Shown: positions 6,371 through 60,444, numbered from the stretch's first letter. The stretch is DNA of 64,000 nucleotides from an uncultured Lentisphaerales bacterium (GCA_943788985.1 CALSSJ010000010.1:32001-96000); one strand, 5' to 3'. Translations and numbers: made by a program. Notes: a model not told the origin generated them from the sequence alone.

Positions 6371-7959
6371 CCAAACGACCGAACATTCTGCTCATCATCA
6401 ACGACGACATGGGCTACTCTGACTTAGGCTGCTACGGTGGCGAAGCCCGCACGCCCAATCTGAATGCCTTGGCCGAGAATGGCCTGCGCTACACCCAGTT
6501 CTACAACACCGCCCGCTGTTGCCCGTCGCGCGCATCGATGCTCACCGGCCTCTACCCGCAGCAGGCAGACGTGGGCCACATGGTCGGCGACGACCAGATC
6601 GACGGCTACCTCGGGGACCTGAACCGCGACACCGTCACCATCGCCGAAGCGCTCGGCACCAGCGGTTACCGCAGCTACATGTGTGGCAAGTGGCATGTCA
6701 CCGGCCATATCGGCGCAGATGGGCCGAAGCACAACTGGCCGGCCAATCGCGGATTCGACGATTTCTACGGCATCATCACCGGCGCTGCGAATTACTGGAA
6801 TCCCCAGACGTTGACTCGAAACAACGAGCGCATCGCGCCCGAGCCAGGGCACTTCTTCACTGACCGCATTTCGGAGGAAGCCGTCCGCCAGATCAGCGAG
6901 CATTGTACTGACCACGCTGACACGCCCTTTTTCCAATACGTTGCCTACACCGCGCCCCACTGGCCCTTGCACGCGCATCCCGAAGACATTGCGGAGTACG
7001 CAGGTGCGTTCGACGCCGGCTGGGACACGCTCCGCGAAGAGCGCTTGGCCCGCATGGTCAAGATGGGCATCATCGACCGCCAGTGGCTGCTCACCGCCCG
7101 CGATCCCCGGGTTGCGGCTTGGGATGAGGCTGATCACAAAGAATGGCAAGCGGGCAGAATGGAAGTCTATGCCGCCCAACTCGACCGCATGGACCGCGGC
7201 ATTGGCACCATCCTGCAGTCCCTCAAGGACAACGGCCAGTGGGACAACACCCTCATTGTGTTCTTGGCCGACAACGGTGCTTGCGCCGAAGAACTCGGGC
7301 CCAAGATGGGCCAGGGAGTTCGCGAAGGCTCAGTCCCGTACGCCACCGCCCAGACCAGCGATGGCCGCGAGGTCCGCTTCGGCAACGATCCCGCGGTCAT
7401 GCCGGGCCCCGAAGACACCTACCAGAGCTGCGGTACGGCGTGGGCAAACGTCAGCAACACGCCCTTTCGGCTCTACAAGCATTGGGTGCACGAAGGCGGC
7501 ATTTCGACACCGTTCATCGCCCATTGGCCCGCCGGGATCGCCGCTCGGAATGAGCTTCGCGATCAACCCGCACAGCTGCCAGATATTATGGCCACCTTCC
7601 TCGACATTGCGGACACCGCCTATCCGGCCAGCCACAACGGTCGAACCATCAAGCCTCTGGAGGGCTTCAGCATCGTGCCAACTTTTGCGGACTCCGCACC
7701 GACTCGCGAGGTGCTGTACTGGGAGCACGAGGGCAACAAAGCAGTCCGCCGCGGAATCTGGAAGCTTGTCTGCCGCTATGGCCAAGACTGGGAGCTCTAC
7801 AACATGGCCGCAGACCGCAGCGAGACCCGCGATCTAGCCGTCACCCATCCCCGCATTGTGAGTGAGCTGACAGCTCTCCACGATGCCTGGGCCGAACGCT
7901 GCGGCGTCATGCCATGGGAGGCGCTGCAAGAGCATCGGCGCTGGCAAGAGCAGCACTGA
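6367..7959 (+). CDS. Arylsulfatase (cytoplasmic)
   Basis: RPNILLIINDDMGYSD, CCPSR, GKWH, ADNG, HEGGISTP; ATGA overlap with GH2. Confidence 0.95.
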   Translation: MTKRPNILLIINDDMGYSDLGCYGGEARTPNLNALAENGLRYTQFYNTARCCPSRASMLTGLYPQQADVGHMVGDDQIDGYLGDLNRDTVTIAEALGTSGYRSYMCGKWHVTGHIGADGPKHNWPANRGFDDFYGIITGAANYWNPQTLTRNNERIAPEPGHFFTDRISEEAVRQISEHCTDHADTPFFQYVAYTAPHWPLHAHPEDIAEYAGAFDAGWDTLREERLARMVKMGIIDRQWLLTARDPRVAAWDEADHKEWQAGRMEVYAAQLDRMDRGIGTILQSLKDNGQWDNTLIVFLADNGACAEELGPKMGQGVREGSVPYATAQTSDGREVRFGNDPAVMPGPEDTYQSCGTAWANVSNTPFRLYKHWVHEGGISTPFIAHWPAGIAARNELRDQPAQLPDIMATFLDIADTAYPASHNGRTIKPLEGFSIVPTFADSAPTREVLYWEHEGNKAVRRGIWKLVCRYGQDWELYNMAADRSETRDLAVTHPRIVSELTALHDAWAERCGVMPWEALQEHRRWQEQH

Positions 7960-8083
7960 CAGCCAGAGACGGCAGGCTCTCAATTGGAGCGTGCTCTTCC
8001 CAGCACGGGGCGAAAGAACGCCACTCCCCTAGCTGACTACGAACAACGCCGTTGCCCGTTTGTAGTTAGCGACGGGAGTCGCG

Positions 8084-9010
8084 TTACAGCACGAGTGTCC
8101 CCGCGATTGCGCCGCTACTCTCGTCATCTGGTTGGCCACCGCCGACGCTGATGGCGTAGTCGCCGCTTGCGAAAATGGGCGCGCCCTTGGCGCTGTAGGC
8201 GGTAAGCTGCTTGCGCTTGATGGTCAGGCTAACGGTCTTGGTCGCGCCCGCTTTGATGCGAACCCGCTTGAAGGCCAAAAGCTGCTTGATCGGCGTCGGG
8301 ACCCGGACCGGGCTGTCCGTGACGTACACCTGGACCACTTCGTCGCCGTCGCGCTTGCCGCTGTTCTTCACCTCGACGGTCAGGGTCAAGCCATCCACCT
8401 TTAGCTTACTATACTTGGACGTTGTGTAACTCAGCCCATAGCCGAACTGGTAGAGCGCCTCCTTCTTCATGAACCGATAGGTGCGCCCCTTCATCCGGTA
8501 GTCGGTGAAGGTAGGAATATCTGCCAGCGACTTAATGAAGGTCAGGGGCAGGCGTCCGGCCGGATTGTAGTCGCCGAAGATGGCATCGGCCATTGCTTCG
8601 CCGCCAGCCTCGCCCGGATACCAGACCATCAAGATGGCCGCTCAGTGTTCCTTGGCCCAGTTGAACTCAATCGGGCTGCCTCCGGTAAGCACGAGGATCA
8701 CCGGCTTGCCGGTCGCGACCAACTTCTCCAGCAAGGCCTGCTGCTGCGTGGGCAGTCCGATGCTGACACGATCCCCGCCGCCCTCGGCATCGGGCACGCC
8801 CATGTCACCCGCCTCTTCGCCCTCCATCTCAGGTGTGACGCCCATGCAGGCGATGATCACCTCGGCATCATTCAAGGCCCAGCCGATCTCTTCTTCGATC
8901 GCACCCGAGCAGTAATTCACCTGGGTGCCCGCTGAGACCTTGCCGACCACGCCCTCGAGCAGCGTCGAGAAGCGAGAGGATAAGCCGTTGTAGTTACCCC
9001 ACAGCACGTC
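8084..9010 (-). pseudogene. GH3 beta-glucosidase/xylosidase, C-terminal half only, with in-frame TGA
   Basis: GNYNG..EGEE..GDR..LP..Q, then EH*AAILMVWYPGEAGG (TGA at 8642-8644) and Fn3-like GDEVVQVY; catalytic N-terminal domain missing. Confidence 0.85.
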
Positions 9011-9290
9011 ATGCCGCGAATGCGGCAGGAACCACCGGTATTCAGCGGCGTTGCCTCCGCCCTGGACGGTGTGCCAGAAGCCGTTACCGTAGGCAGATAC
9101 TCCTCCTTCGACGCATCCCCATACCGCCGATTCCCAGGAGCTTTCCAGCTGGTCTAGCTCGTCGCCGGGGTGGCATCACGAGGCGGGGAAACCGCGTCCT
9201 GCGTTGTATGTTCCTCGCACAGGCGGATTATACCGGTTCAGCCGATGCGTCCACTGGAGACGCAGACGACCTTAACAGCACGGTGTGAGA

Positions 9291-10693: not shown

Positions 10694-11386
10694 ATGGCGC
10701 AGAAAATTCTGGTAGTCGAGGATGAATCGGCGATTGCCGACACCATTCAGTATGCCTTGGCCACCGAAGGGTTTGACGTGACCGTCGTCGGAACTGGCAG
10801 CGCCGCGCGCGAAGCGCTGGCTGCTGCGCAGTTTGAGTTAGCAGTGCTGGATGTCGGCCTGCCGGACTGCAATGGCTTCGACCTCTTTCGCGAACTCCGC
10901 AGATCCTCCGAACTGCCGGTGGTCTTCCTGACCGCACGAAGCGAGGAGGTCGACCGCATTGTCGGCCTGGAGATCGGTGCCGATGACTACATGGCGAAGC
11001 CGTTCAGCCCCCGCGAATTGACGGCCCGCGTCCGTGCGATCCTCCGCCGTTGCGCCAGCGCCAAGGATCCAGAGCCAGAAGTTGCGGAGTCCGCACCAGG
11101 CTTCTCGCACTGCGAGTCAGCGTGCGAAATTCGCTATCACGGTGAATTGCTGCGGCTGTCCCGCGGGGAGTATCGCCTACTGACTGCCATGCTGTCGCGA
11201 CCTGGCTGGGTCCTCTCGCGCGAGCAACTGCTCGACCTTGCCTGGGACGATCCCATGGCGAGCGAGCCGCGCACGGTCGATACGCACATCAAGACCATCC
11301 GCGCCAAGCTGCGCAAGATCACGCCAGACCAGTGCCCGATCATCACGCACCACAGCATGGGCTACTCGCTCAGTGTTGACCCATGA
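10694..11386 (+). CDS. creB: CreB-like OmpR-family response regulator
   Basis: ILVVEDESAIADT, LDVGLPD, TARSEEVDRIVGLEIGADDY, RTVDTHIKTIRAKLR. Confidence 0.88.
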   Translation: MAQKILVVEDESAIADTIQYALATEGFDVTVVGTGSAAREALAAAQFELAVLDVGLPDCNGFDLFRELRRSSELPVVFLTARSEEVDRIVGLEIGADDYMAKPFSPRELTARVRAILRRCASAKDPEPEVAESAPGFSHCESACEIRYHGELLRLSRGEYRLLTAMLSRPGWVLSREQLLDLAWDDPMASEPRTVDTHIKTIRAKLRKITPDQCPIITHHSMGYSLSVDP

Positions 11387-20676: not shown

Positions 20677-21156
20677 GTGCACTGTAGACTAATCGGTTTG
20701 TGTCTTGTGGTCCTGGCGTGTGGTTGCGAACAGCGCAAACCTGCCGCGCTTGACGTACCCACACCGCGTGCTGACCAGCGCACCCAGCCGCCCGATCCTC
20801 CGCCCGTAGAGCGCCCCAAGCCGCGCCTTTCGCTGAACGCTCAGCGGATTGAGAATTTCATTGTCCACGCCCACCAGATTGGCTATTTGCAGCCGGGAAA
20901 GATGGCCAGCTTTGAACTGGAGCTATTCGACCAAAAAACCTGGCCGGTGTCACCGGTGGCTTGGGTCGGGAGAGAAACGACCGACAAGCGCTGGCGTCGG
21001 CCAAGTCGCAACGACACTGGCCGCGTACGTCTTTTTAAGATCCCCGTCCCCAGCCCGATTCCCGCGGACAGCAGGCTCTGGGTGATGTTTCCAGATGAAG
21101 ACGCCACCGAGGACGCGCCCGCGGCGAGTGCCTCGTTCAAACTTCGCAGGGAATAG
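20677..21156 (+). CDS. Hypothetical lipoprotein
   Basis: LVVLACGC lipobox and Pro-rich linker; abuts the HDAC gene. Confidence 0.6.
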   Translation: MHCRLIGLCLVVLACGCEQRKPAALDVPTPRADQRTQPPDPPPVERPKPRLSLNAQRIENFIVHAHQIGYLQPGKMASFELELFDQKTWPVSPVAWVGRETTDKRWRRPSRNDTGRVRLFKIPVPSPIPADSRLWVMFPDEDATEDAPAASASFKLRRE

Positions 21157-22108: not shown

Positions 22109-22782
22109 CCACGCTACTTGGTCGTTCCTGCCCGCTAATTGCTGGGGTTGTTTCAACCCCCGAGGCATTGGCCGCGCTCGACGTGGAGTCCGCCGCGGCC
22201 TGCGACTTAATCGAGCTTCGCTTTGATCAACTGGCAATGCCCCTTGCAGCCTTTCGCGCAGAGTGCGCGCGCGTCCGCACGCTGGTCCCTATCCTGCTAA
22301 CCCACCGCTGGTCTGCGGAAGGCGGTGGGGCAGACGATGACCAGGCCCGCTGGGCCGTCTATGAGGCATTGGTGCAGGACGTCGACGCATTCGATATTGA
22401 GTTGGCGAGCAGCCTCGCGGCCAGAGTAAGCGCCTTGGCGGTTGCCAATGGCGTGACCCTAATTCTCAGCTTTCATGATTTCCAAGGCCTGCCCGAAATT
22501 TGCGAACTCCGCAAAAAGATCGCCCGCATGCGCGAGTTAGGCGCAGTCCCCAAGCTGGCCGTGACCGTCGAAACCGACGAGCAAGTTCGCGAACTCGAGG
22601 CCCTTTTGCGCGACTGCGGCTCAGAGCCAACCTGCGTGATCGGGATGGGCACCGCCGGCCAGCAGACGCGCTTTGGCTTTCCCCGCCTGGGTTCCTGCCT
22701 GACCTACGGCTACATCGACCGACCGAGTGCCCCCGGCCAGCCAAGCTGTTGCGAACTCCGCAACGCCCTTAAGCCCGGCTGA
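22105..22782 (+). CDS. aroD: Type I 3-dehydroquinate dehydratase
   Basis: IELRFD, EGG, SFHDF, PKLA, IGMG..G..TR, APGQ. Confidence 0.9.
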   Translation: MTTLLGRSCPLIAGVVSTPEALAALDVESAAACDLIELRFDQLAMPLAAFRAECARVRTLVPILLTHRWSAEGGGADDDQARWAVYEALVQDVDAFDIELASSLAARVSALAVANGVTLILSFHDFQGLPEICELRKKIARMRELGAVPKLAVTVETDEQVRELEALLRDCGSEPTCVIGMGTAGQQTRFGFPRLGSCLTYGYIDRPSAPGQPSCCELRNALKPG

Positions 22783-44067: not shown

Positions 44068-44076
44068 TACCACCTA

Positions 44077-44769
44077 ATGCGGATGTGTATCTTATTTCTC
44101 GCTGGAACCGGGCTGGCAGCATGCCTGTACTACGCGATCCGCGCGCTCCGAATGAGAAGGCTGATGACCGGAACCCCGACCACGAAGATTGAGGATATCA
44201 CTGGGGGGCTCACAGAGCTTTCAGGCCGGGTCCCAGATAACGCGGACATCCTAGAAGCCCCGATTAGCGGCCAAGAATGCGCATACTACCGCATTAAGAT
44301 CGAACAATATCGATCCCAGAAAGATTCTGGCGGCTGGCACCAAGTCCTGGAAGCTAGCGCGCCGGACTGGATGACTATCGATGACGGGACCGGTATTGCC
44401 GCCATCTGCCTAGCAGACGCGACCTTCGAGTTGGGACGTGATATTCGCAGCGAGAGTGGTGGGTACAGCGGAGCTCCCGAGAAGATCCGAGAGCGCCTCT
44501 CCAGCAAGTATGGCTTCGACACCAAGGGCTGGGTCTTCAATAAGCGTCTCCGGTATACTGAATTTCGGCTCTCGTCAGGCGATATGCTCTACGCGATTGG
44601 GGAAGCCACTGCAGGCGAGCCACCGACGTTGAAGGCAGGGCCCAAGGGCTTGCTGCTCTCCGACAGGCCGGAGGCCATCCTGGCCGCGGAGTTACAGTTT
44701 CGTTTCGTTGGCTTTGCCGCCGGTGCCATTGGCAGCCTCATTGTGCTGATTTTGGCATTGTCCAAGTAG
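44077..44769 (+). CDS. GIDE-domain membrane protein
   Basis: TM, then TPTTKI..GLTELSGRV..APISGQECAYY..DDGTG..GDMLYAIG, then TM. Confidence 0.75.
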   Translation: MRMCILFLAGTGLAACLYYAIRALRMRRLMTGTPTTKIEDITGGLTELSGRVPDNADILEAPISGQECAYYRIKIEQYRSQKDSGGWHQVLEASAPDWMTIDDGTGIAAICLADATFELGRDIRSESGGYSGAPEKIRERLSSKYGFDTKGWVFNKRLRYTEFRLSSGDMLYAIGEATAGEPPTLKAGPKGLLLSDRPEAILAAELQFRFVGFAAGAIGSLIVLILALSK

Positions 44770-44777
44770 GCAATCCG

Positions 44778-47700
44778 ATGGAAATGCCTCAAGTCTCGCT
44801 GCCTGAACAGCTGGAGCTGTACCGCGTGGCCCGGCGCCGCCGGGACCTAGTGCAACAGGCGGCGCGCTTGTTGCTGATGGCAGGCAGTGGTTTGCTCCTC
44901 TTCTGCGCCTTCGACTACTGGCTCCAACCGAGTTGGGTGGTGCGCTTCGCCTTGGCTGCGGTCTGGTACACCGCAGTCGGCATCAAGGCCGTCCGGCTCT
45001 TGCGGCGCTATGCGATACGCGCGTCGGACCTTGACATGGCCTGGGAGCTTGAAGCACGATTACCGCTGGGCGAGTGCCTCATTTCCGCGGTCGAGTTCTA
45101 TCAGTCACCACAGCTGGGCACCTCGCCGGAGATGCTGGATTGGACGCAGCTGGACGCGCAGGTAGAGCTGAGCCAAGCCACCCCCGAAGAACTCTTTCCA
45201 GTGCAACGGGCCTGGCCGGTCTGTGGCGGGATCCTCATCGCGATCTTGTTGATTGGCTGCTTGTTGCTGCCGGATGGCATCGGCCGCTCAGCCCGCCGCC
45301 TGCTGGTACCTACGCCCCATGATGCCACGGCCGGTAGCTTCAGCCTGGGCATCATTTCTCCCGGAACCGGCAATGTGCTAGAGGGGAAAACCGTAGCCGT
45401 ACGAATGCACTGCGAGGAATCGTCGCTGACGAACGTCTACCTCGTCGCCGACAATGAGTATGCCCAACACCGGATCCGAGCCGAGCTTGAGCCCACCACG
45501 GGGCACTATCTGGCAGAACTGCGCGCAGTGCGAGAAGACACGCTGTATTGGGCAGCTGCCGGGCGCGTCCGTTCGCGCGCTTACCAGCTAACTGTCCTGG
45601 CAAAGCCACGCCTGCGCGCGCTCAACTATCGCATTGTGCCGCCGGACTATCTCGACGCCGCGATCGTCGAAGGCGAGGATCTGAATGGCCAGATCGAGGG
45701 CCTGATCGGGGCTACCGTGGAGCTGAACATCGAGCTATCCTCGCCCATCACCTGGCTGCAAATCAAGCGGGGCACCGAGACCATCCGGGCCATCATAGAC
45801 GGATCGCGCGCCTCGCTGCGCTTCCACTTACGTCGCACCGAGCACTTCACGATTGAGTATGCGGACGACTCCAGCGGCCATGCCGGCCAGTTTAGTGGGC
45901 TGATTCGCGGGGTGGAGGACGAGCCACCATGGGTACAGTTTCTGACCCCGGCGGGAGACATTTATTGCGAACCGGGCGACACGGTGCCCCTTTCCTGGCG
46001 CGACTGGGACGATCATGGCCTAGAATCCGTGGCCTTGCAGATCAGCAAGAACGGCGAGCCGCTTCCGGACCGGGTGCAGGACTTGAGCGCCTCTACCGCG
46101 CAGCTCGAGCTCGACCGCCTTGGCGCACGGAGCGGCGACCGCATCGACCTGCGCCTGCTGGTCCGCGACAAAGCCGGCCGCCAAGCCACAAGCAAGACCC
46201 GCAGTTTGCATGTTTCGCGCGCCACCTTTCTGCGAGACCTACCGGCCTTCGAATCGCTGATGACGCAGCTTGCTAAGTCCGCAACGACTCTGCACGAGCA
46301 ACTCAAGGCGCTCAAGACCAGCACCGACTTAATGCGGTCCATGTCGGTCTCTGTGGGGGATGAAGCGCACCATCGCCACACCGCGGCCACTCTGCGCGAA
46401 AGCGTGGAGAACGAGCTGAGCACTGCGCTGGACCGAATCGCAGCAGGGAAGCGGATGCATCTTTTTCCGGGAAGCAGGCTGGGGCTCGCGCAGCTCGACG
46501 CCGCCCTGTCGGACATCTACCTCTTCAGCCTGGCTGGCAGCACGACAGCGTTGAACAGCGACCACCTACAGCAGGCGATCGACTCAGTCGCGCTGATCTC
46601 TCCGGTGCTCAGCGACCTCCGCGAACGCCTGCAGCAGCACAAGCGCCTGTGGACACGCGATACGCTCTATCGTCGCCTCCAGCAAGACCCGAGTCCGCAG
46701 CTGCTGATCCTGGCCGCAGCGGAGCTTGCCTCGAAAGCTAAGCCAGCGGAGATCATGCCGCAGCTTGCCGCGGCAATTGCGGAGTCCGCAGCAGCGCTAG
46801 CGAAGATTGGGAGCCTGTTGCGCAGCTGCGAGGCACTGGCCCAAAGCCACCCGCTCCCTGGGGCGCGCTTCAAAGCGCTCGCCAGTCCCGAACTGACCGA
46901 TGCGGAGCGGCTGCAACTTCTCGGCCAAGTGATCCGCCGGCTCAAATCACGCACCTTTCCCGACGCAGAGGAGGACACGACGCGGTACCTCGTGATTCGC
47001 GCACTTGAGGACGCGGCCAGCCACCAACGAATCGGCAGCATTGAGCTGCTCGCGCGCACCGTTCACCTGCTCCAATCGGGAATTGATGCCCACGCACTGA
47101 GGACTGATTGGGAACAACGACACCACAATCACCTAGATGAGCAACTCTATGCCCTCCAAATACTCCACCACGCCCCCCTCCAGTCGCAGCCCCTCTCAAA
47201 AGTGCCTGCGGCCGAGAGGCTCACGTCCGAGATTCGGATTGCCCTCAAGCGACGCAACCCAGAGTACAAAAAGCTTGCCCCAGCGTTTCATGCGCTGATG
47301 CGCGAGACTGAAACGGCCGTAGCTCGCGCCAGAACGCAACTAGCGCAATACTCTGAGCCTGCTTCGCAGAGCCTGCGCTTTGCAGCGGACCAATTGCTGG
47401 CGGCACTGGCTGGGCTCGAGCAGGACCGGGCGGACGTGGTCGATCTGCACGCCATCCTGCTCGCGGAAACCGTCGCCGAATTGGAACGTCTGGCGCGAGA
47501 TGAAATCCGGGCCGCCGAGGGCTCCATTCTGGCGGCAGCGGACGCCACAGTCTTGGCCCGAGTGACCGCAGGCCATGTCGAGGAACTGAGAGAGCAGGGC
47601 AACTCTGCAGACATCTTGGAAGCCGTCGCCGACGCACTAACGCAGCTTGCGGAGTTCGCAGAACTCTTTGAGGCAGCACTGGCTGGAGAGATCAAGCCTG

Positions 47701-49547
47701 CTGAGGCAGTTGCGAACTCTGCAGCTTTGCAACAGGCCTACGCGCTGCTTCGTCCGGAGGAACTGTCCGTCCTAGCCCCTTTGCGCCGTGAGCGCCGGGG
47801 GCTGGACGCGTTGCGCGACGCGGATCAGTCGGATTCCGCCGATGACCTTCAACGCCGTGGCGCCCGGCTGGCCTCACTCCTCGGCAGCAAAGGCAGCCGA
47901 GAGCTCCGCTCACGCGTCGAGCTGGGCTTGGCCACAGCGCAGAAAGCGGTGCTGAGTTGGCTCCTAGAGTCTGCCCAGCACGGGCATGTCCCGGCGCCGC
48001 TGGACCGCGAACTAGCCCGTGCTTGCCATGACGTCACCGCGCTCCTCCACGCATTCGCGGTCTTCAGTGATGTTGAGCTGGGGCTCCGGGCCGAACTGGC
48101 CCTCGCCGATGGCGAAGACGAGGTGTTTCAGCTGCTCGAAGCGCTGAGCGACGTGCTCGACGCGCTCCCCGCGCGGAAGCTTGAGCCCGTGGCCTATGCT
48201 TCGTCTCCACCGGACGAGGATGCGCTCTGGGCGGCACTCGCGTTTAACGATCGCGAGACAGTACTCGCGATCCTGGCAGGCCAGCCGACACAGATTGCGG
48301 AGTTCGCAACGCTCGGATTGCGCCATGGCCAAATGGCTGGTGTTACCATCGACGAGCTGGATGTGCGCCAGGGACCGCACGGCTTTCTCTCTGAGCTGCC
48401 GCTGGTGCCTACTCCGGGCGTGCCGCTGGTAGACCTCCAACTGCCGAGCCTGCAGCGCCTCGCGATCGCCCGTGAGGCCGCCACCGGGGGCAACGTGATT
48501 CAGTTGCAGACTTCGCTAGCGCGCAATGACTGGCGCCGCATATCCCGCATGTCACTAGGCTCGAGCGCCGCGTACTTGGACTTTGGGGCGAAGCTCTGGC
48601 AGGTGGCCACCGAGGCTGGCCGGACCGCGGTGCAGGTCATCCCGGCCGAAGAAGATGCGGAGTTCGCACAAGCGCAGGCTCCAAGCATGCTGAACCGGTG
48701 GGAGTTTCTGGCGCTGTGCATCGCGGAGCAGTTTGACCTCCCCCAGGCCGTGCAGGCTGTTCGCTACGGCGAACCCGAGCGCGCCATCGCCGCGTTTGCG
48801 GAGTTCGCAAAACTGCGCCCCAGCACCGCCGAGCTTTCGCTGCTTGCAGGCCGGCTGCTATGCGTCCCCGTTCCTTGGCGAGGACCACCGGAGGGGAGTG
48901 TCGAAGCCTGGCTGATGGCTACGATGTGGGATCGGGATCCGGTGCAGCAATTGCTGCGCTGGGAGGTACTGGAAGCGCTGGCCACCGGCCACGATGACCG
49001 TGCGCGGGTCCACCTGCTGGCGTATGACCGGCTCGAAACCCACCCGCAGACCCATGTCCTGTTGGCGACCCTGCCGCCTCCGGCCTTACGCCCCGAGCGC
49101 AGGCCAGAGGTCGGCCTGGCCGAGCACACCTGGGCCCCCGGATGTCCGTGGCAGCCGCATCAGGCGTTGCTGAGTGGCGAGGCCGAGCTGGTGGATGCGA
49201 TCGTCCAGCTCTGGCGCGCCGCCTACTACGCTCAATTGCCGGAGTCGGCAGCCTACCTGCGGCTCCCGGATCAGGACCAGCTCCTCGGGCAGGCACGCGA
49301 TCTGTTGGGGATCGCCGAGCAGCGGTTTGTGATGCACGCCTTCGATGCAGCCCGCCCGCTGATGTTGGCGCCGACCGGTGCCACAGATGGCTTCACAGAC
49401 CCGTTTCAATCCGCCACAACCGGCCCCGATCAGGACGACTCGCTGTTCCACAGTTTCGAACGTGCGAACTCCGCAGCAGCATTCTCGCTGCACTTTCGCC
49501 GGGCCAATCGACGCTACCTGGAGCGGTTAACGCATCTTCTGGATTGA
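44778..49547 (+). CDS. Large membrane-anchored protein (DUF4175-like: TMs, Ig-like domains, long helical tail)
   Basis: N-terminal TMs, LISAVEF, PPDY, DEPP..DDHGL motifs; 1589 aa. Confidence 0.7.
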   Translation: MEMPQVSLPEQLELYRVARRRRDLVQQAARLLLMAGSGLLLFCAFDYWLQPSWVVRFALAAVWYTAVGIKAVRLLRRYAIRASDLDMAWELEARLPLGECLISAVEFYQSPQLGTSPEMLDWTQLDAQVELSQATPEELFPVQRAWPVCGGILIAILLIGCLLLPDGIGRSARRLLVPTPHDATAGSFSLGIISPGTGNVLEGKTVAVRMHCEESSLTNVYLVADNEYAQHRIRAELEPTTGHYLAELRAVREDTLYWAAAGRVRSRAYQLTVLAKPRLRALNYRIVPPDYLDAAIVEGEDLNGQIEGLIGATVELNIELSSPITWLQIKRGTETIRAIIDGSRASLRFHLRRTEHFTIEYADDSSGHAGQFSGLIRGVEDEPPWVQFLTPAGDIYCEPGDTVPLSWRDWDDHGLESVALQISKNGEPLPDRVQDLSASTAQLELDRLGARSGDRIDLRLLVRDKAGRQATSKTRSLHVSRATFLRDLPAFESLMTQLAKSATTLHEQLKALKTSTDLMRSMSVSVGDEAHHRHTAATLRESVENELSTALDRIAAGKRMHLFPGSRLGLAQLDAALSDIYLFSLAGSTTALNSDHLQQAIDSVALISPVLSDLRERLQQHKRLWTRDTLYRRLQQDPSPQLLILAAAELASKAKPAEIMPQLAAAIAESAAALAKIGSLLRSCEALAQSHPLPGARFKALASPELTDAERLQLLGQVIRRLKSRTFPDAEEDTTRYLVIRALEDAASHQRIGSIELLARTVHLLQSGIDAHALRTDWEQRHHNHLDEQLYALQILHHAPLQSQPLSKVPAAERLTSEIRIALKRRNPEYKKLAPAFHALMRETETAVARARTQLAQYSEPASQSLRFAADQLLAALAGLEQDRADVVDLHAILLAETVAELERLARDEIRAAEGSILAAADATVLARVTAGHVEELREQGNSADILEAVADALTQLAEFAELFEAALAGEIKPAEAVANSAALQQAYALLRPEELSVLAPLRRERRGLDALRDADQSDSADDLQRRGARLASLLGSKGSRELRSRVELGLATAQKAVLSWLLESAQHGHVPAPLDRELARACHDVTALLHAFAVFSDVELGLRAELALADGEDEVFQLLEALSDVLDALPARKLEPVAYASSPPDEDALWAALAFNDRETVLAILAGQPTQIAEFATLGLRHGQMAGVTIDELDVRQGPHGFLSELPLVPTPGVPLVDLQLPSLQRLAIAREAATGGNVIQLQTSLARNDWRRISRMSLGSSAAYLDFGAKLWQVATEAGRTAVQVIPAEEDAEFAQAQAPSMLNRWEFLALCIAEQFDLPQAVQAVRYGEPERAIAAFAEFAKLRPSTAELSLLAGRLLCVPVPWRGPPEGSVEAWLMATMWDRDPVQQLLRWEVLEALATGHDDRARVHLLAYDRLETHPQTHVLLATLPPPALRPERRPEVGLAEHTWAPGCPWQPHQALLSGEAELVDAIVQLWRAAYYAQLPESAAYLRLPDQDQLLGQARDLLGIAEQRFVMHAFDAARPLMLAPTGATDGFTDPFQSATTGPDQDDSLFHSFERANSAAAFSLHFRRANRRYLERLTHLLD

Positions 49548-49632
49548 AGGAGGCAAGAATATCCGCCTGCCTTCCGGGGGCAACAGTCGTTAGATTGTAT
49601 TGTTATTTGTCGCCGCATCAATAGGTTGCGGC

Positions 49633-50703
49633 ATGACCATTGCGTACGTAATTACTGAACTGCACGAGGGCGGCGCTGAGAATGCGCTGTGGCAGCTGTG
49701 TCGCCAGCTCGTCTCGCGTCACTCGCTCGCGATCTGCTGCTTGCACGGGGCCGACGGCCCCGTGGCGGCGCGTGTGCGCGAGCTGGGAATCCCCGTAGAC
49801 GAGGTCGGAATTTCATCTGCACGCGACCTGGCGGGCATCGGCCGGCTTCGCGAGTGGTTGCGGAGTTCGCAAGCCGATGTGATTCATAGCTGGCTGTTTC
49901 ATGCGAACTTCGCGACGCGCCTGGCCAATCCGGGGCCCACGCCGCTGGTTTGCGGACTCCGCGTCAACGAGCCGCGGCGTTCGCATGTGCTGCCGGACCG
50001 TTGGACGCGAGGCAAGGTCACCCGCTATGCCTGTGTGTCGCAGCAGGTGAAGGCCTTTGCGGTAGATGAGTTGCGGGCGGACCCAGCGCGCTGCACGGTG
50101 ATCGAGAATGGTGTGGACTTTGGGGCATTCGAGAGCGCACGCACGGGCAAGCGGCCGAGCGATTGCGTGCTGGGCCTAACGGTCGCGCGCATTGCCCGCC
50201 AGAAGGCGCATCACCGACTGCTCCGCGGGCTGGCGACGCTCCCGCCCACGCTGGACTGGAGTTGGCGCTTTGTGGGCGCTGTGGCAGAGCCAGACTACCA
50301 GGCCGAGCTTACCGCGCTGGCGAGCGAGCTCGGCATTCACGAGCGCATTGAGTGGGTGGGCCCGGTGACGAAGCAGCAGGTGTTTGCGGAGTACGCAAAC
50401 GCCACGGCGTTTGCCCTGGCCAGTTCGTGGGAAGGCCAGCCGAATGTGGTGCTGGAAGCGATGGCTGCAGGCTTGCCGGTGATCTGCACCCGCACCGATG
50501 GGATTCCGCAGTTGCTGGATGCGGTCCCTGGCTGCGTGCGAGCAGTGCAGGGCGAGCCGAACGATTGGTCCGTGATACCGGAATTAGTGGCAGACCAAGC
50601 CTTGATCGCCGCGGGACTGCAAGCGGCGCAAGCGCGCGGCTGGGAGGATGTGGCACGGCAATACGAGAGTCTGTATCAGGAGGTGGCGCCATGTGCGGGA
50701 TAG
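49633..50703 (+). CDS. GT4 glycosyltransferase
   Basis: GGAE, IENGVD, ARQKAH, EGQPNVVLEAMAAGLPV. Confidence 0.92.
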   Translation: MTIAYVITELHEGGAENALWQLCRQLVSRHSLAICCLHGADGPVAARVRELGIPVDEVGISSARDLAGIGRLREWLRSSQADVIHSWLFHANFATRLANPGPTPLVCGLRVNEPRRSHVLPDRWTRGKVTRYACVSQQVKAFAVDELRADPARCTVIENGVDFGAFESARTGKRPSDCVLGLTVARIARQKAHHRLLRGLATLPPTLDWSWRFVGAVAEPDYQAELTALASELGIHERIEWVGPVTKQQVFAEYANATAFALASSWEGQPNVVLEAMAAGLPVICTRTDGIPQLLDAVPGCVRAVQGEPNDWSVIPELVADQALIAAGLQAAQARGWEDVARQYESLYQEVAPCAG

Positions 50704-52568
50704 CAGGCCTAATCGACCCCAATACGCCGCCGGATGAGGCGACGCTGGCGCGGATGGCCGAGACGATGGTGACGCGGGGTCCCGATGCGGTCGGCTATTG
50801 GACGCATCACGCCGCCGGACTTGCGCATCGACGCTTGTCGATTATCGACCTGAGCGAGGCTGGGCGCCAGCCGTTGTTCAACGAGGACCGAAGCCTGGCC
50901 TTGGTCGCCAATGGCGAGATTTACGGGCATTGCGAACTCCGCAAAGACTTGGAGGCGCGCGGCCATCGGTTCGCGTCAGGAAGCGATAGCGAGTGCCTGT
51001 TGCACCTCTATGAGGAGTACGGCGAGAAAATGGTGGAACGCCTGAATGGGATGTTCGCTTTTGCGATCGTGGAGGTGCAGACCGGACGGCTGTTTCTGGC
51101 GCGAGACCGGCTGGGCCAGAAGCCACTCTTTTACGCGGTGAAGGGCGATCGCATTGCCTTTGCCAGCGGCCCACGGGCACTGGCGACGCTGCCGTGGGTG
51201 GATCGCACCTTGGATCCGCAGGCCATCTACGACTACCTGGAGATGCAGTATGTCCCGGGCCCAAGGACCATTTATTGCGGAGTTCGCAAACTGCTGCCGG
51301 GGCATTCGGCGCTGTGGCAGGGGCAAGAGCTGACGCTGCGCAGCTACTGGGATCCGGGTGCTGCGCGGGCGCCGTTTCAGGGCAGCTTCGCCGATGGCAA
51401 GGCTGCGTTGCGCGAGACGATGGGCCGGGCTGTCGAACGACGCATGGTGGCGGATGTTCCGCTGGGAATGTTCCTGAGCGGCGGCGTGGATTCGAGCGTG
51501 ATCTGCGCGCTGGGCCAAGAAGCCTCGGTGCGGCCGGTGCAGACCTTCTCGCTTGGGTTCCCCGAGCGCAAGTATGATGAGCGCGAGTACGCGGCGCAGG
51601 TGGCGCAACATCTTGGGACCGACCATCATTTTCTGGAGGTGTCGCCGGATGATTTCTCGCGACTCCCTACGATCTGCGCAGACTTTGAGGAGCCGTTCGC
51701 CGATGCCAGCATGCTGCCCACCTGGCTGCTGAGCCAGTTTACGCGCCAACACGTGACCGTGGCGCTAAGCGGTGACGCGGCTGATGAATTGTTTGCCGGG
51801 TACTATCGCTACGCGGTAATGAAGATGGCGCAGAACTTCAATCTGGTCCCGGGCTCGCTGCGCGGGCCGCTGACCGCTGCGGGACTCGCAATCCTGCCGC
51901 CTAAGCGAGAGGAGCGCACGTTCTTTGGCCGGCTGCGCCGGATTGTGGAGATCGCGGGCCCGACGGATGCGGCGCGCTACTTGCAGTTGATCTCGCGGTT
52001 TCGCGATGCGCAAAAGGGTGCAATTCTGGGTGCAAACTTCGCGGATGCGGGCCTGCGGCCTACGGGCGAGTGGCTGGGCAGCAGCTGGAATGGTGCGGAT
52101 GGCGATGGCCTGGCCGCGATGGCGCTCGATATGCACACGTACTTACCAAATGACATTCTGGTAAAGGTGGACCGGGCCTCAATGGCCCATGGGCTGGAGG
52201 TACGCAGCCCGTTTCTGGATCCAGAAGTGGTCGAACTGGCGCTGTCGATGCCGTTCGACTGGAAACTGAACGGGCGCACGCGCAAGCACATCTTGGTGGA
52301 GTCGTTTCGGGATAAGCTGCCCGCGGCAATCTTTGCGCGGGGCAAGATGGGCTTTGGTGTGCCGGTGGCGCGCTGGTTCCGCGGCGCCTGGGAAAAACCG
52401 CTCCGCGATCATTTACTGGGCGGCCAGTTGATTCGTGAGGGCTGGCTGGATGAGGCAGGCGTGCAGGCGCTCATTGACCAGCATGTCGGGATGAAGGCGG
52501 ATACGAGCTATTCGCTGTTCGCGCTGCTGATGCTGGAGCTGTGGCTCGCAGGCTCTGAGGCGGTTTAG
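50691..52568 (+). CDS. asnB: Asparagine synthase-like glutamine amidotransferase
   Basis: MCGIAG, RGPD, HRRLSIID, NGEIY, LSGGVDSS, KVDRASM..LEVRSPFLD. Confidence 0.95.
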   Translation: MCGIAGLIDPNTPPDEATLARMAETMVTRGPDAVGYWTHHAAGLAHRRLSIIDLSEAGRQPLFNEDRSLALVANGEIYGHCELRKDLEARGHRFASGSDSECLLHLYEEYGEKMVERLNGMFAFAIVEVQTGRLFLARDRLGQKPLFYAVKGDRIAFASGPRALATLPWVDRTLDPQAIYDYLEMQYVPGPRTIYCGVRKLLPGHSALWQGQELTLRSYWDPGAARAPFQGSFADGKAALRETMGRAVERRMVADVPLGMFLSGGVDSSVICALGQEASVRPVQTFSLGFPERKYDEREYAAQVAQHLGTDHHFLEVSPDDFSRLPTICADFEEPFADASMLPTWLLSQFTRQHVTVALSGDAADELFAGYYRYAVMKMAQNFNLVPGSLRGPLTAAGLAILPPKREERTFFGRLRRIVEIAGPTDAARYLQLISRFRDAQKGAILGANFADAGLRPTGEWLGSSWNGADGDGLAAMALDMHTYLPNDILVKVDRASMAHGLEVRSPFLDPEVVELALSMPFDWKLNGRTRKHILVESFRDKLPAAIFARGKMGFGVPVARWFRGAWEKPLRDHLLGGQLIREGWLDEAGVQALIDQHVGMKADTSYSLFALLMLELWLAGSEAV

Positions 52569-52676
52569 CGGGCCGGTTACAGGCTCACGCGAGCTCAAGC
52601 CACGTTGGGGCTGAGAAAATTCGGACTAATAAGTCCAACCTACATCAAGCGGGGACAATGGTCAGCGATGGGCTAA

Positions 52677-53009
52677 CTACCGAGACTCGAGCCAAGATTT
52701 GAGTTGGGCGAGTTCAGCCTCCGTGAGGACGGAGGCCTGGTAGGCTTCTTTGGATAGGCCAAGCTTCTCGAGGTACTTTTCCTTGTACTTGCCAGGTGGC
52801 ATGTATTCGTCTTCGACGACTTCGACAAGGACGTCTTCGAGGTCGGCAAGTATGGACTCTAGGTCCGGATAGGCGACTTCTGCGGTCTTGCTCTCGCCAT
52901 GCTGGCCGTGGCAGGGGAAGCAGCCCTTCCTGATGATCCGCTCGATCTCCACCTCAGCGGCGCACACCCAAAGGGTGGCGAACAAGAAGACGAGAAAAAT
53001 CCGGGTCAT
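52677..53009 (-). CDS. Small secreted c-type cytochrome
   Basis: Signal peptide, CFPCH, MPP, LTEAELAQLKSW. Confidence 0.75.
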   Translation of the reverse strand: MTRIFLVFLFATLWVCAAEVEIERIIRKGCFPCHGQHGESKTAEVAYPDLESILADLEDVLVEVVEDEYMPPGKYKEKYLEKLGLSKEAYQASVLTEAELAQLKSWLESR

Positions 53010-54758: not shown

Positions 54759-55587
54759 ATGTATACGTTTCTTGTAGCAATCGCCGCCGCAACTGCGGCA
54801 TACGCAATTGGTCACTCGATCGAGTGGGGGCCCACCTTTGCAGTTCTAACCTTTATTGGCGTGCTGATTTACTGTTTCCGCAAGTTCGGCAAGAAACTCC
54901 AGGCTGTGGTCGAAGAGGCGCAGCAGATTGTGTTGGGAGGGCGCGCCGAAGTTGAGAAGCTGATTCAGCGCGCGCAATCCAAGCCGATGGGCTCGCAGAA
55001 GATGTTGGAAGAGAAGGCCGAGAAGATGATCGCCGACTCGGTCCGCACGGCGCTCATTTCGCTTGACACCGCCGAGCCACTATTCAAGTGGGTCGCAATG
55101 GGCAAACGCCAGATTAGCACGGTCAAGATGCAGTGGCTCTATCAAATCAAGGCCTTTGACGAGGCGGACCCCTTGATGGCGAAGGCATTTGAAATGGATC
55201 CATTGGTGATCGCCATGAAGATGGGCCCGCGCCTACATGAAGGATGCGGACGCAGATCTGGAGCCGCTGTTCAAGCGTGGCACTCGCAAGTTCAAGGGGG
55301 ACAAGGGGCTGATCCTGTACTCTCTGATGGCCTGGGTAAACCTCAAGCGTAAGAACAATGAGCGGGCGCTGGAGATTCTGGTCCAAGCCAAGGAACGAAC
55401 GGAGAGTACCGTAATTCGGAAGAACTGGGAGCATGTGGTAAACAACAAAGTGCACATGTTCTCCAACGCCGGACTTGGCGATGCCTGGTATTCATTGCAT
55501 CTTGAGAAACCGCCGCGGCAGAAAGCCGGTAAGGGGCAGCTGAAAAGCCACCCCATGTACGGACGCGGCAAACGTCGATTTGTCTAG
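54759..55587 (+). pseudogene. Hypothetical membrane/TPR-like protein split by a +1 frameshift (possible sequencing error)
   Basis: Removing one G from atgggcc (~55222) fuses 54759.. with 55237..55587 (MKMARAYMKDAD). Confidence 0.7.
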
Positions 55588-56637: not shown

Positions 56638-56643
56638 CACCCG

Positions 56644-57855: not shown

Positions 57856-58959
57856 TCAGAGCTCGCGACAAATGCCTTGGTGGAGCAGGAGCTTTTGGGC
57901 GGGGATCGCAATATGCGTGTGGCTGAGTTCGAGCAGGCCGTGGTCGACCAAGGCTGAGGCGCTGTCGGGCAGCAGCTCGGCGACTGTGAAGCCGGTGCGC
58001 TGGTGAAAGGCATCGCGCTCCCAGCCTCCGACTAGGCGCAGGCCGGTGCAGAGAATCTCGTGGGCTCGGTCGCGCGTTGAGATGGTATCTGCCTCGGGGT
58101 GCTCAGCGGCTAACCAGCGGGCGAGGTCGGGGAGATTGCGCCAACGAGTCTCCCCGTCGAACCAACAGGCACTGGGGCCAGCGCCAGCGAAGCTGCCGCC
58201 ACGCCAGATGTCGACGTTGTGGCGACACTCCGCGCCGGGAAGGGCGAGGTTGGAGATCTCGTAGAGCTGGAGGTCGATGGCGGCCAAGGCTTCGACGCCG
58301 TGCGTCCAGAAGTCGGCCATGCGGTCATCGTCTGCCGCCTCTGCGCCGCGATCAGCAAGCGGCGTGAAGGGCTCGATCGAGAGCGCGTACATGGAGACGT
58401 GGTCGGGTGCGAACTCCGCAACTGCAGCAACGTCGGCAGCCCATTCGGCTAGGGTTTGGTCCTGGGCGCCGTAGATGAGGTCGCAATTCATGTGTGCGAA
58501 GTTCGCACTGCGAATGCGCTCGACTGCTTTGCGGACGAGCTTGGCTGCGCCGGGTCGCCCGAGGGCCTTGCGGGTGCGGTCGTTGAGGCTCTCGACACCA
58601 AGGGAGATGCGGTTGACGCCGTGGTCCTGCATGATCTTGAGGCGGTCGGGCGTGAGCGAGAGGGGGTTGCCCTCCATGGTGAATTCGCAGTCGGCGGCGA
58701 GGGTGAAGTGGGTGTGAATCTGGCGCAGGAAGCGCTGGAGTTCGCTGACGGTGAGGTGGGTGGGGGTGCCACCACCGACAAAGATAGCGTCGAGCGGCAC
58801 TGCCTGCGGGGCGAACTCCGCAAATTCGGCGTCCACGCGCTGGAGGTAGCGCTCGCGCTGGATGTCGCTGCCACCAGCCAGGGTGTAGAAGGCGCAGTAG
58901 TCGCAGCGCACGGCGCAGAAGGGGACGTGGACGTAGAGGGAGGCGAAGGGCTGGGTCAC
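57856..58959 (-). CDS. hemW: Radical SAM heme chaperone HemW
   Basis: LYVHVPFCAVRCDYCAF, GGGTPT, RISLGV, YEISN. Confidence 0.92.
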   Translation of the reverse strand: MTQPFASLYVHVPFCAVRCDYCAFYTLAGGSDIQRERYLQRVDAEFAEFAPQAVPLDAIFVGGGTPTHLTVSELQRFLRQIHTHFTLAADCEFTMEGNPLSLTPDRLKIMQDHGVNRISLGVESLNDRTRKALGRPGAAKLVRKAVERIRSANFAHMNCDLIYGAQDQTLAEWAADVAAVAEFAPDHVSMYALSIEPFTPLADRGAEAADDDRMADFWTHGVEALAAIDLQLYEISNLALPGAECRHNVDIWRGGSFAGAGPSACWFDGETRWRNLPDLARWLAAEHPEADTISTRDRAHEILCTGLRLVGGWERDAFHQRTGFTVAELLPDSASALVDHGLLELSHTHIAIPAQKLLLHQGICREL

Positions 58960-59690
58960 AGGGCGGCTCGGATGGTGGCGAGGTCGATGTGCTGGCGGAT
59001 GGCGGCACGCACTGCAGTGGGGCTGAGATCGCTCAGCTCGGGCAGGTAGCCGAGGATGGGGCACTGGGTGAGGGCCTGGACGTAGAGCGGGTTGCTGGCC
59101 TCTGGCTGTGTGCGTTGCGAACTCCGCAAAAGCTGGTCCATGGTGCGAGCCGGGGGAAGGGGCCCGGTGTAGCGGTTGAAGATGATGCCAGCGACGGTGA
59201 GGCCGAGCTGCCGGGCACAGCGGACGGTCATGACGGTGTGGTTGATGGCGCCCAGACCGGCTGGGGCGATGATGAGCAGGGGCAGCTGGAGGGCGGTTGC
59301 GAGGTCCGCAACTGTGGTGTCATGGGCGATGGGGGCGAAGAGGCCGCCAGCGCCTTCGACGAGGAGTCGCTGATAGGGCAGGGCGTCGCGGCCGGCGAGC
59401 AGGGCGGGCAGGGTGAGTTCGCGCCCCTCGAGCCGCGCCGCGAGGTCGGGGGTGACGGCGTGCGGCAGGCTGTGCGGGCAAATTGCGGACTCCGCGTCCG
59501 GAACACCGGAGAGGGCCTTGAGTCTGGCACTGTCGGCGTCTGGCTGGCCACAAAGCGCACCAGATTGCACGGGCTTCCAGATGCCAAGATCCAGACCGTC
59601 TTCACGCAGGCAGCCGACTATGCCACCGGTAAGGATGGTCTTTCCGACTTCGGTGTCGGTGGCGGTAATGAACAGCCCTGGTTGGGGCAT
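58956..59690 (-). CDS. bioD: Dethiobiotin synthase
   Basis: TATDTEVGKT, WKPVQSG, VEGAGG, LGAINHT. Confidence 0.95.
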   Translation of the reverse strand: MPQPGLFITATDTEVGKTILTGGIVGCLREDGLDLGIWKPVQSGALCGQPDADSARLKALSGVPDAESAICPHSLPHAVTPDLAARLEGRELTLPALLAGRDALPYQRLLVEGAGGLFAPIAHDTTVADLATALQLPLLIIAPAGLGAINHTVMTVRCARQLGLTVAGIIFNRYTGPLPPARTMDQLLRSSQRTQPEASNPLYVQALTQCPILGYLPELSDLSPTAVRAAIRQHIDLATIRAAL

Positions 59691-59700
59691 GGCGTATCTG

Positions 59701-60444
59701 CTACTGCATGACCATGCCGCCATCGACGGTCAGGGTTTGACCGGTGATGTAGGAGGCGGCAGGTGAGACGAGAAAGGAGACGGCAGCAGCGATGTCTTCG
59801 GGACTGCCAGGACGGGCCAGCGGGATGTGGGTGAGGAAGGCCTCGCGCTGTTCGTCGGTGAGTTCGTCGGTCATCTCGGTGGCGATGTAGCCGGGGGCCA
59901 CGGTGTTCACGGTGATGTTCCGCGCAGCAAGCTCCTTGGCAGCAGCCTTGCCGAGGCCGATGAGACCAGCCTTGGAGGCGGAGTAGTTCGCCTGGCCAGC
60001 ATTGCCGGTGAGGCCGACGATAGAGGAAATGTTGACGATGCGACCGCTGCGGGCTTTCATCATGGGCCGGCTGACTGCTTTGATACAGTTGAAGGCACCG
60101 CGCAGATTGATGTTCATGACGGTGTCCCAGTCGTCCTGCTTGAGACGCACGAGCAGGTTGTCGCGGGTGACGCCGGCATTGTTCACGAGGATGTCGATGC
60201 GGCCGTGGCTCTTGCTGATCTGCTTGACCATAGCGTCGATTTCTGCGGACTCCGCAACGTTGGCAAGATGACTCTCGATGGTGAGGCCGTCGACAGCAAG
60301 CTCGTCGATGGCCGCTTGGGCTGGTTCGGGTCGAACGCTGACGATGATGACGCGGGCGCCCTGGGCTGCGAGCGAGCGTGCGATTCCTTTGCCGATACCG
60401 CGGGAACCGCCGGTAACGATTGCGACTTGATCTGTGAGGTCCAT
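59701..60444 (-). CDS. fabG: 3-oxoacyl-ACP reductase
   Basis: TGGSRGIG, NNAG, GQANYSASK. Confidence 0.96.
   Translation of the reverse strand: MDLTDQVAIVTGGSRGIGKGIARSLAAQGARVIIVSVRPEPAQAAIDELAVDGLTIESHLANVAESAEIDAMVKQISKSHGRIDILVNNAGVTRDNLLVRLKQDDWDTVMNINLRGAFNCIKAVSRPMMKARSGRIVNISSIVGLTGNAGQANYSASKAGLIGLGKAAAKELAARNITVNTVAPGYIATEMTDELTDEQREAFLTHIPLARPGSPEDIAAAVSFLVSPAASYITGQTLTVDGGMVMQ

Follow-up and report, generated by a model that had tools for sequence, protein, structure and literature searches.

The 64,000-nucleotide stretch of DNA considered here (hereafter the window; C10:32001–96000 of genome assembly G000) comes from an uncultured marine bacterium of the Lentisphaerales, whose assembly comprises 4.58 Mb in 48 contigs with a GC content of 58.3% and is 83.6% complete. 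By its genes the window is ordinary chromosome, carrying sulfatases, rpsA, groEL, dnaK, a sigma factor gene, plsX-fabH-fabG, bioD and hemW. Scattered through it are copies of a short DNA word, two fixed arms separated by exactly five bases (TTGCG-N5-CGCAA), and it is this word that is analysed below. An initial annotation, made from the window alone, had counted 27 exact copies of a 13-base core; the abundance stands but the exact number does not, as our recount gives 28 exact matches to TGCGRASTYCGCA, at positions 7686 to 60256. About ten near matches had also been mentioned, and there are indeed ten TGCG-N5-CGCA sites whose centre does not fit the pattern RASTY, including one (6990–7002) where the annotation placed the start of the feature. 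The window therefore holds 38 TGCG-N5-CGCA sites (28 with a RASTY centre and 10 with another), against one or two sites at each of the spacings N3, N4, N6 and N7.

The sites are given here as matches to TGCG-N5-CGCA in window coordinates, with no strand assigned. Those with a RASTY centre are found in a sulfatase gene (7686–7698, centre GACTC), a response-regulator gene (11083–11095, GAGTC), an aroD-like gene (22501–22513 and 22750–22762, both AACTC), a 1,589 amino acid open reading frame (ORF; 46778–46790, GAGTC; 47648–47660, 48296–48308, 48656–48668 and 48797–48809, all GAGTT; and 49463–49475, AACTC), a glycosyltransferase gene (49859–49871, GAGTT), an asparagine-synthase-like gene (50931–50943, AACTC, read as CELR; and 51276–51288, GAGTT, read as CGVR where relatives lacking the motif have T/N/Q-G-I-R), a hemW-like gene (58408–58420, AACTC; 58495–58507, AAGTT), bioD (59116–59128, AACTC) and fabG (60244–60256, GACTC). 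Further RASTY sites lie at 32987–32999 (AAGTT), 35321–35333 (GAGTT), 35477–35489, 35687–35699 and 35987–35999 (all GAGTC), 38839–38851 (AACTC), 39114–39126 and 40161–40173 (both GACTT) and 43509–43521 (AAGTC). Two more, at 29662–29674 (AACTC) and 30519–30531 (GAGTT), confirm the copies previously placed between genes, and lie upstream and downstream, respectively, of a DEDD-exonuclease-like gene. The sites with other centres are at 6990–7002 (GAGTA), 20725–20737 (AACAG), 25696–25708 (GTGTC), 26678–26690 (GTTCG), 29750–29762 (TAGTT, in the spacer upstream of the same DEDD-exonuclease-like gene), 39027–39039 (AAGAT), 50385–50397 (GAGTA), 51878–51890 (GGACT, in the asparagine-synthase-like gene), 54794–54806 (GCATA) and 59298–59310 (AGGTC). 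The small DEDD-exonuclease-like gene itself (29878–30492) is thus flanked by three intergenic sites (29662, 29750 and 30519), an arrangement that may be due to chance.

In 100 dinucleotide-preserving shuffles of the window, TGCGRASTYCGCA occurred 0.02 times on average and never more than once. Across the whole of G000 there are 850 copies with a RASTY centre, on nearly all contigs, against about 1.4 expected when the shuffles are scaled to the genome, which bears out the earlier suggestion that the word is genome-wide. No 10-, 12- or 14-mer is commoner in the genome than the word and its parts; the arms by themselves are enriched about 11-fold, and the complete local word about 600- to 1,000-fold.

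Three simple explanations deserve next to no credence: that codon or peptide bias produces the word, that it is a mobile repeat scattered through the genome, and that it is an assembly artefact. The first can point to the single reading frame shared by about 72% of coding copies (see below). Among 3,003 crude gene calls made on G000 with our own script, however, 693 copies are observed, whereas 11.2 remain on average when synonymous codons are shuffled within genes (no more than 19 in any of 20 replicates) and 0.7 when codon order is shuffled, and copies are found in all frames and in spacers; the enrichment persists under codon-preserving nulls and the signal lies, as the initial annotation had it, at the level of DNA. 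A mobile repeat is opposed by the flanks: a sequence logo of 849 copies holds information from −2 to +14 only and close to none beyond ±8. Repetitive extragenic palindromes and miniature inverted-repeat transposable elements are known by extragenic copies and by conservation beyond the stem, whereas here the flanks are uninformative and 79% of copies are coding (74% of random positions, as judged by a local codon-score classifier). As to an artefact, the part of the window from 43000 to 52999 is present in 20 public sequencing runs from ten studies of marine or estuarine samples dated 2014–2025, and contigs from four of these runs, each from a different study, cover it at >99% identity. Because independent studies assembled the same DNA, the motif-bearing stretch is not an assembly artefact, and the word recurs in dozens of unrelated assemblies.

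The DNA that the same 20 metagenome runs have in common with 43000–52999 is near-identical to it, with 84–99% of the sampled words present, and it follows that the G000 organism is widespread in seawater. Differences between the metagenome copies cluster at 50631–50738 and 50957–50966.

The initial annotation had delimited the element as a palindrome with a self-complementary consensus, and this description needs correcting. The commonest form in G000, TGCGAACTCCGCA, accounts together with its complement for 424 of the 850 copies and has an asymmetric centre; the unit is a spaced dyad, and RASTY is a preference of this lineage. What is conserved is two 5-base arms with a gap of exactly 5 bases. 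In G000 as a whole, TGCG and CGCA occur five bases apart at 1,749 sites, whereas each of the spacings n = 0–4 and 6–10 gives 142–195 and composition predicts 122. The excess over background is about 1,600 sites, or one per 2.9 kb. Samples of 400 kb from two relatives give the same picture, with 95 sites at N5 against 0–5 at the other spacings in G028 and 53 against 1–16 in G032. In 400 kb of each of three others (G004, G020 and G035) there was no excess at N5, other spacings being similar, and no comparable hyper-abundant dyad was found.

The arms are sharply specified: single-base arm variants occur at most 8 times, against 216 for the consensus 15-mer, and the arms are identical among genomes of 41–68% GC. 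The centre is a lineage matter. In G000 the counts are 424 for AACTC, 239 for GACTC, 109 for AACTT, 100 for ATCTC and 78 for AAGTC; AACTC predominates in G000 and GACTC in G032 (68% GC), and in G028 (41% GC) the centre is almost free and the outer flanks are T- and A-rich. A pairing rule connects halves and centre in G000: A-type halves are found with a C at the centre, G-type halves with a G. The rule is obeyed in either coding orientation and acts at the level of DNA. The centres of the arms are 10 bp apart, that is, one helical turn. This geometry and the obligatory N5 spacing fit a symmetric protein dimer that would bind duplex DNA along one face and sense the centre only indirectly.

Of 668 coding copies in G000, 478 (~72%) are read in the frame T-GCG-RAS-TYC-GCA-A and 97 and 93 in the two others, and 61 of 86 coding sites in G028 use the corresponding Ala-x-x-Ala frame despite a GC content of 41%; the preference fits what proteins tolerate. 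The peptide readings listed earlier (AESA/AEFA, CELR, CGVR, ANSA and AKSA) were recovered. AEFA occurs 173 times where 30 are expected, 123 of these being spelled by the motif codons (3.1 expected); AESA 173 times against 48.5 expected (107 by motif codons); and ANSA 129 times against 25 (90 by motif codons). GCG followed by GCA two codons further on (GCG-x-x-GCA) is found 1,808 times where 842 are expected, and the same two codons at offsets 1, 2, 4 or 5, or in reverse order, show no excess.

Neither position within the gene nor the type of spacer matters greatly. Each decile of gene length holds 129–162 sites, flat along genes, and the density per kb is 0.396 (~0.40) in coding DNA, 0.31 in co-directional, 0.34 in divergent and 0.385 in convergent spacers. 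Like HIP1, the highly iterated palindrome of cyanobacteria to which we return below, the word is thus found within genes as well as between them and has no role at the level of the gene. Orientation with respect to the coding strand is weakly biased (178:147), as is that of the asymmetric forms with respect to the sign of GC skew (95:66 and 101:77). Chi- and KOPS-type sequences (KOPS, FtsK-orienting polar sequences) have a strong orientation bias with replication, which is not seen here, and the weakness of the bias makes a role in replication direction unlikely. Within the window, GC skew is negative up to ~48 kb and positive thereafter, with a cumulative minimum near 44–48 kb. This switch could be due to a local inversion, or could mark the origin or the terminus of replication; among the window ORFs scanned, dnaA was not seen.

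Being palindromic, the word would give a small hairpin in the transcript whichever strand is transcribed, and a hairpin in single-stranded DNA or in RNA might be what is maintained. A 5-bp arm with a 5-nucleotide loop, or 6 bp with a 3-nucleotide loop, can fold, and the 'loop' is nearly free in sequence in G028. The predicted stability is −4.1 to −6.3 kcal/mol only, though, and the arms are fixed in sequence rather than covarying, the loop is strictly 5 nucleotides long and, in the commonest form, the inner pair is mismatched (A-C). The equal density in transcribed and spacer DNA and the weak coding-strand bias also speak against a hairpin, and we regard this explanation as very improbable.

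Sites are not evenly spread. Gaps of 200–500 bp number 88, against 47.6 under an exponential expectation, and nine stretches of more than 22 kb in G000 are without any site. Tandem pairs resembling operators were considered and set aside: seven of nine pairs at a 16-bp offset are intragenic and none stands beside an obvious small regulator gene.

Conservation of individual sites was examined in genus g18, a genus other than that of G000, by comparing four stretches of G028, each of 20 kb, with its congeners G034 and G025 (75–81% identity). All eight arm bases are retained at 17 of 29 aligned sites in G034 and at 14 of 28 in G025. The corresponding control rates are 0.178 and 0.143 for all windows, 0.143 and 0.119 for words with the same make-up of weak and strong (W/S) bases, and 0.156 and 0.114 for xGCx-N5-xGCx words, so that retention of the arms exceeds the controls with binomial p values of ~1e-5 to 4e-8. 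Identity at the centres of retained sites (127/155) is close to the regional average. In g18, then, sites are conserved between related genomes beyond background, as is the case for HIP1.

Across families, sites are mostly lineage-specific, and sequence comparison reveals how they come about. Among 26 orthologues of the asparagine-synthase-like gene, the 11 from motif-bearing genomes carry nine sites and the 15 from non-bearers carry one. At one locus the peptide T/N/Q-G-I-R-K-L has become C-G-V-R-K-L in G000 and in G005, so that the site was formed at the price of amino acid changes, and three other genomes of family f3 are one base short of a site there. At another (Y-T/A-I-F-A-L), f3 keeps the peptide and the DNA is recoded to the word. 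These comparisons show that copies are not inserted but arise in place, by synonymous and amino-acid-changing point substitutions, anywhere in resident DNA, and that once formed they persist at orthologous positions.

Such persistence is what would be seen if the sites bound a dimeric nucleoid protein, in the style of matS and MatP, NBS and Noc or SBS and SlmA, or of the chromosome-structure role proposed for HIP1, with each site maintained by selection on chromosome organisation or self-marking. The arms one helical turn apart at an obligatory N5 spacing, their retention against 11–18% in controls while the centre is conserved like its surroundings, the identity of the arms from 41% to 68% GC, and the indifference of the sites to promoters, terminators and position within genes all agree with this, and PMC5861425 provides a precedent in the conservation and periodicity of HIP1. 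The clustering described above and the nine long site-free stretches fit it poorly, and each of hundreds of amino acid replacements would need to bring a selective benefit. About 1,600 sites is 10–70 times the number in known nucleoid systems. In addition, the trait is lost or absent within families and a temperate phage carries sites too (both below). On balance we consider a nucleoid function rather unlikely.

The word is restricted to one class of the phylum. Relatives, class and phylum were surveyed by counting TTGCG-N5-CGCAA against a reversed-word control, and in the class survey a genome was called enriched at 40 or more copies and at least 5 times the control. Among 41 relatives, G000 included, 14 are clearly enriched, with counts (control in brackets) of 594 (9) in G000, 56–103 (3–8) in f3, 185 (0) in G017 and 75 (1) in G032; in family f9 the counts are 216–390 in genus g15 and 469–712 in genus g18. 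The other relatives are at about the level of the control, including f9 genus g21 and families f2, f4 and f5 of the order to which G000 belongs. In the class sample, about 33 of 201 genomes, from 16 of 29 families, are enriched. Family f25 is enriched throughout (7/7), f7 (0/66) and f6 (0/40) not at all, and families f9, f12, f14, f16, f24 and f29 are mixed, with bearers as well as non-bearers. Besides the genera of f9, such contrasts are provided by G094 against G060 in f14, G110 and G084 against G100 in f16, G150 against G122 and G146 in f24, and G204 against G192 and G202 in f29. Outside the class, 167 genomes of the phylum were sampled and all have fewer than 40 copies; the highest count is 25, against a control of 10. 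Presence in relatives, which the initial annotation had named as a check, is thus established, and a trait with identical arms is shown to be common to a patchy subset of the Lentisphaeria. The description of the motif as a gapped dyad that is class-restricted, patchy within the class, positionally conserved and costly to proteins is solid.

Other repeats were encountered in these genomes. In G009 (family f4) the reversed control word is the more frequent (94 against 11), and a second 'dialect' was considered for this reason and then rejected. Copies of a single fixed 15-base hairpin word, AACGCCTTCAGCGTT (for example G009:C22:27347–27361), make up most of the 94 matches; this word often lies within a few hundred bases of contig ends and is a dispersed repeat in its own right, distinct from the dyad. 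Repeated words were also seen in the 400-kb samples of G035 (G035:C1:100001–500000), where 12- to 14-mers of the type GGACGGATCGGAC occur 30–39 times, and of G028 (G028:C1:100001–500000), where CAACCAGAGAACCA occurs 28 times, possibly as a tandem or dispersed repeat.

Foreign DNA differs in its content of the word. The largest site-free stretch of G000, of 86 kb (C12:1–86172), has no TGCG-N5-CGCA and a GC content of 54–57%. Its genes lie almost all on one strand and encode sulfatases, alpha-L-fucosidases, GH20 and GH95 enzymes, a rhamnosidase, a DDE transposase and many Exo_endo_phos proteins. The stretch appears to be an island, acquired recently, for the degradation of sulfated fucose-rich glycans. 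An IMG/VR contig of 28 kb (G042, 58.9% GC), in contrast, has 14 N5 sites, one per 2 kb, which is a host-like density, and none at N3, N4 or N6. According to PHROGs annotation (transposase, MuB-like protein, terminase, portal, head and tail) this is a fragment of a Mu-like transposable phage; its further genes include one for a DNA methyltransferase and one for a PAPS-reductase-like protein. Two pairs of copies in G042 (16031/16049 and 16325/16343) lie 18 bp apart. A complete 83-kb phage with terminal repeats has two copies. Judged from these sequences, absent from the island and present in the Mu-like fragment, the motif appears to be tied to residence in the cell. A wider search of IMG/VR viral contigs with exact 15-mers gave 60 and 36 matches, numbers near chance by a rough estimate with an assumed size of the collection, and two contigs only are common to both lists.

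Methylation was among the roles initially suggested for the word, and patchiness within families is typical of mobile modification genes. A methyltransferase of bipartite specificity, of Type I or IIB style, might mark the dyad, or a site-directed repair or mismatch-correction bias might turn near-sites into sites. Bipartite targets of 3–4 bases, a gap of 5–6 and 3–4 bases are typical of Type I and IIB enzymes, and each arm offers an adenine on one strand. The methyltransferase families searched in G000 and its relatives give no support to this idea. A profile search of the 83.6%-complete G000 found no PF01555 or PF02086 methyltransferase. PF02384 is represented by two adjacent N6_Mtase genes (C36:36244–38483), fragmentary and broken into several frames with stops, and as an enzyme for the motif it was rejected: it is found in none of the five f3 genomes and in nearly all non-bearers. 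The one intact C5 methyltransferase gene of G000 (C17:79194–80342) is followed by an ORF with an HNH motif, with which it looks like a Type II restriction-modification pair, and a C5 fragment lies on C35; this candidate too was discarded, having no homologue in any of the five f3 genomes nor in G028, G034 or G037. Known repair biases, moreover, shift word counts modestly, and restriction targets are usually avoided rather than enriched. The f3 genomes, with an excess of ~10 times the control, could be a decaying lineage of former bearers that lost the enzyme, which would weaken the negative result for methyltransferases. Even so, we judge a modification- or repair-linked origin decidedly improbable.

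Genes for DNA uptake were examined in the same way. PilM is present in 66 of 69 genomes, G000 included, and DprA is present in G000. ComEC is found in 39 of 41 relatives. Both PilM and ComEC were tried as discriminators and rejected, occurring regardless of motif status. A second, long ComEC-like gene (ORFs of 950–1,270 amino acids) stands beside an ordinary comEC of ~750 amino acids in f3 and in G017 (family f8), on G011:C31, G005:C166, G017:C192, G013:C375 and G002:C43. It was not found in G000 or in f9 or f12 genomes and, being restricted to f3 and f8, cannot encode a general reader of the word. None of the gene families tested (methyltransferases, ComEC and PilM) accounts for the patchiness of the motif.

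How does the word compare with those already known? As previously claimed, its sequence matches none of HIP1, uptake sequences, matS, SBS/NBS or parS. A literature search with the 11-base cores found no use as a bacterial motif; the matches listed, judged by their non-bacterial titles (mammalian, axolotl and Leishmania), are taken as primers or incidental sequence. A search for work on highly iterated palindromes or Lentisphaerae yielded, among the papers listed, none on a motif of Lentisphaerae.

The closest parallel is HIP1. HIP1 is reported to exceed expectation 15- to 300-fold, to be conserved between genomes and to recur periodically (PMC5861425), to embed the GATC and CGATCG sites of two orphan methylases (PMC4390886, PMC13756078), and to co-vary in abundance with pilus and competence genes, the association with methylases failing correction (PMC13756078). 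It has been proposed to act as an uptake sequence (PMC13756078), and a preprint reports that it raises transformation efficiency in a homology- and methylation-dependent manner (10.1101/2024.09.10.611283). Like HIP1 (GCGATCGC), the present word is palindromic, over-represented genome-wide (in its full local form well above the ~15-fold that marks words of this type), and both intra- and intergenic; sites of either word are retained at orthologous positions, each word has disappeared from some lineages, and for neither is a function proven. The differences are several. The word differs from GCGATCGC in sequence and is found in a phylum other than the cyanobacteria; it is a spaced dyad with a free centre, HIP1 being a contiguous octamer; it is sparser, at one per 2.6 kb, HIP1 reaching more than one copy per gene; and, among the C5, PF01555, PF02086 and PF02384 families searched, it embeds no target of a resident orphan methyltransferase, nor does it contain the recognition site of any methyltransferase found in G000.

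A second parallel is with the uptake sequences of the Neisseriaceae (DNA uptake sequences, DUS) and of the Pasteurellaceae (uptake signal sequences, USS). In these, a sharp core is bordered by weaker flanks, copies number in the hundreds to thousands, a cost is exacted in peptides with frame use set by protein tolerance, and recently acquired DNA has few sites, all of which holds for the present word; pilus, ComEC and DprA genes are present in the group, ComEC not being found in G000 itself, and the word is common to related species with 'dialects' (about 33 of 201 genomes, the centres of G000, G032 and G028 differing). DUS and USS are, however, asymmetric, contiguous 9–12-mers, whereas the motif is dyad-symmetric and cannot do without its 5-base gap. 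Pairs of DUS frequently act as terminators, and here there is no excess in convergent spacers relative to coding DNA. Of other dyads, matS, NBS (Noc), SBS (SlmA) and parS resemble the motif in being 12–16 bp long and able to lie within genes, and those known are read by dimers; these systems comprise tens of sites, often regional, with a cognate protein known, whereas here about 1,600 excess sites are clustered and on nearly all contigs. Operators of the Cro/434 type and Type I/IIB targets share with it half-sites of 4–5 bp at a distance of one helical turn, around a centre that is not contacted but has base preferences all the same. The former are few regulatory sites and the latter unenriched restriction targets, and accumulation throughout a genome is explained by neither. 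The motif is thus a new architecture of the HIP1/DUS/USS kind of phenomenon.

With these comparisons in mind, we tentatively favour the view that the word identifies self-DNA, that a dimeric protein reads it and that bias in uptake or recombination has spread it. TTGCG-N5-CGCAA would label DNA as 'own', and a step of DNA uptake or of recombination would depend on this label; alleles carrying it would be preferentially taken up or recombined, and the word would spread by molecular drive, plus any selection, until stopped by protein constraint. The putative reader, perhaps a pilus-associated protein or a periplasmic DNA receptor, may have been repeatedly gained and lost among families.

Several points weigh against a self-DNA word spread in this way. 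DUS and USS are asymmetric words; we know of no dyad-symmetric uptake signal and of no report of transformation in the Lentisphaeria. Pilus and competence genes are equally frequent with and without the motif and therefore explain none of its patchiness. ComEC was not found in the 83.6%-complete G000, either by Pfam search or by tblastn with the proteins of relatives. The genes that flank comEC in f3 and f2 relatives map to scattered G000 contigs, and with incomplete assembly and non-conserved synteny loss of the gene is indistinguishable from a gap. Among the single-nucleotide polymorphisms (SNPs) of the metagenome copies, none of the 40 listed (44 reported) falls in a copy of the motif; with ~0.6 expected, the test for depletion in copies has no power. 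Xu et al. (PMC5861425), moreover, take positional conservation as an argument for selection on sites rather than replenishment, and 50–59% of sites are conserved here; this conservation fits a selected binding site equally well.

A broader proposition, and a more doubtful one, is that part of the Lentisphaeria uses the gapped dyad as a 'self-DNA watermark', the dimeric reader having been gained and lost many times within the class. Constant arms, lineage-specific centres and presence and absence within families mean that the reader is findable by comparative genomics, and, were the proposition true, the class would be the best natural system so far for finding such a reader by phylogenetic profiling, with contrasts inside at least five families, and the word would be the first spaced-dyad uptake or self-recognition word. 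Few hyper-abundant words of the kind of HIP1, DUS and USS exist, and the function of HIP1 has been open for decades; to these the motif adds a third architecture, of fixed arms and an obligatory 5-base gap, in a phylum with none described. For the bacteria that carry it, the word reshapes proteins, with hundreds of extra Ala-x-x-Ala peptides, and its absence flags foreign DNA, as in the 86-kb island. It could also serve as a marker for binning and host assignment of Lentisphaeria contigs and phages.

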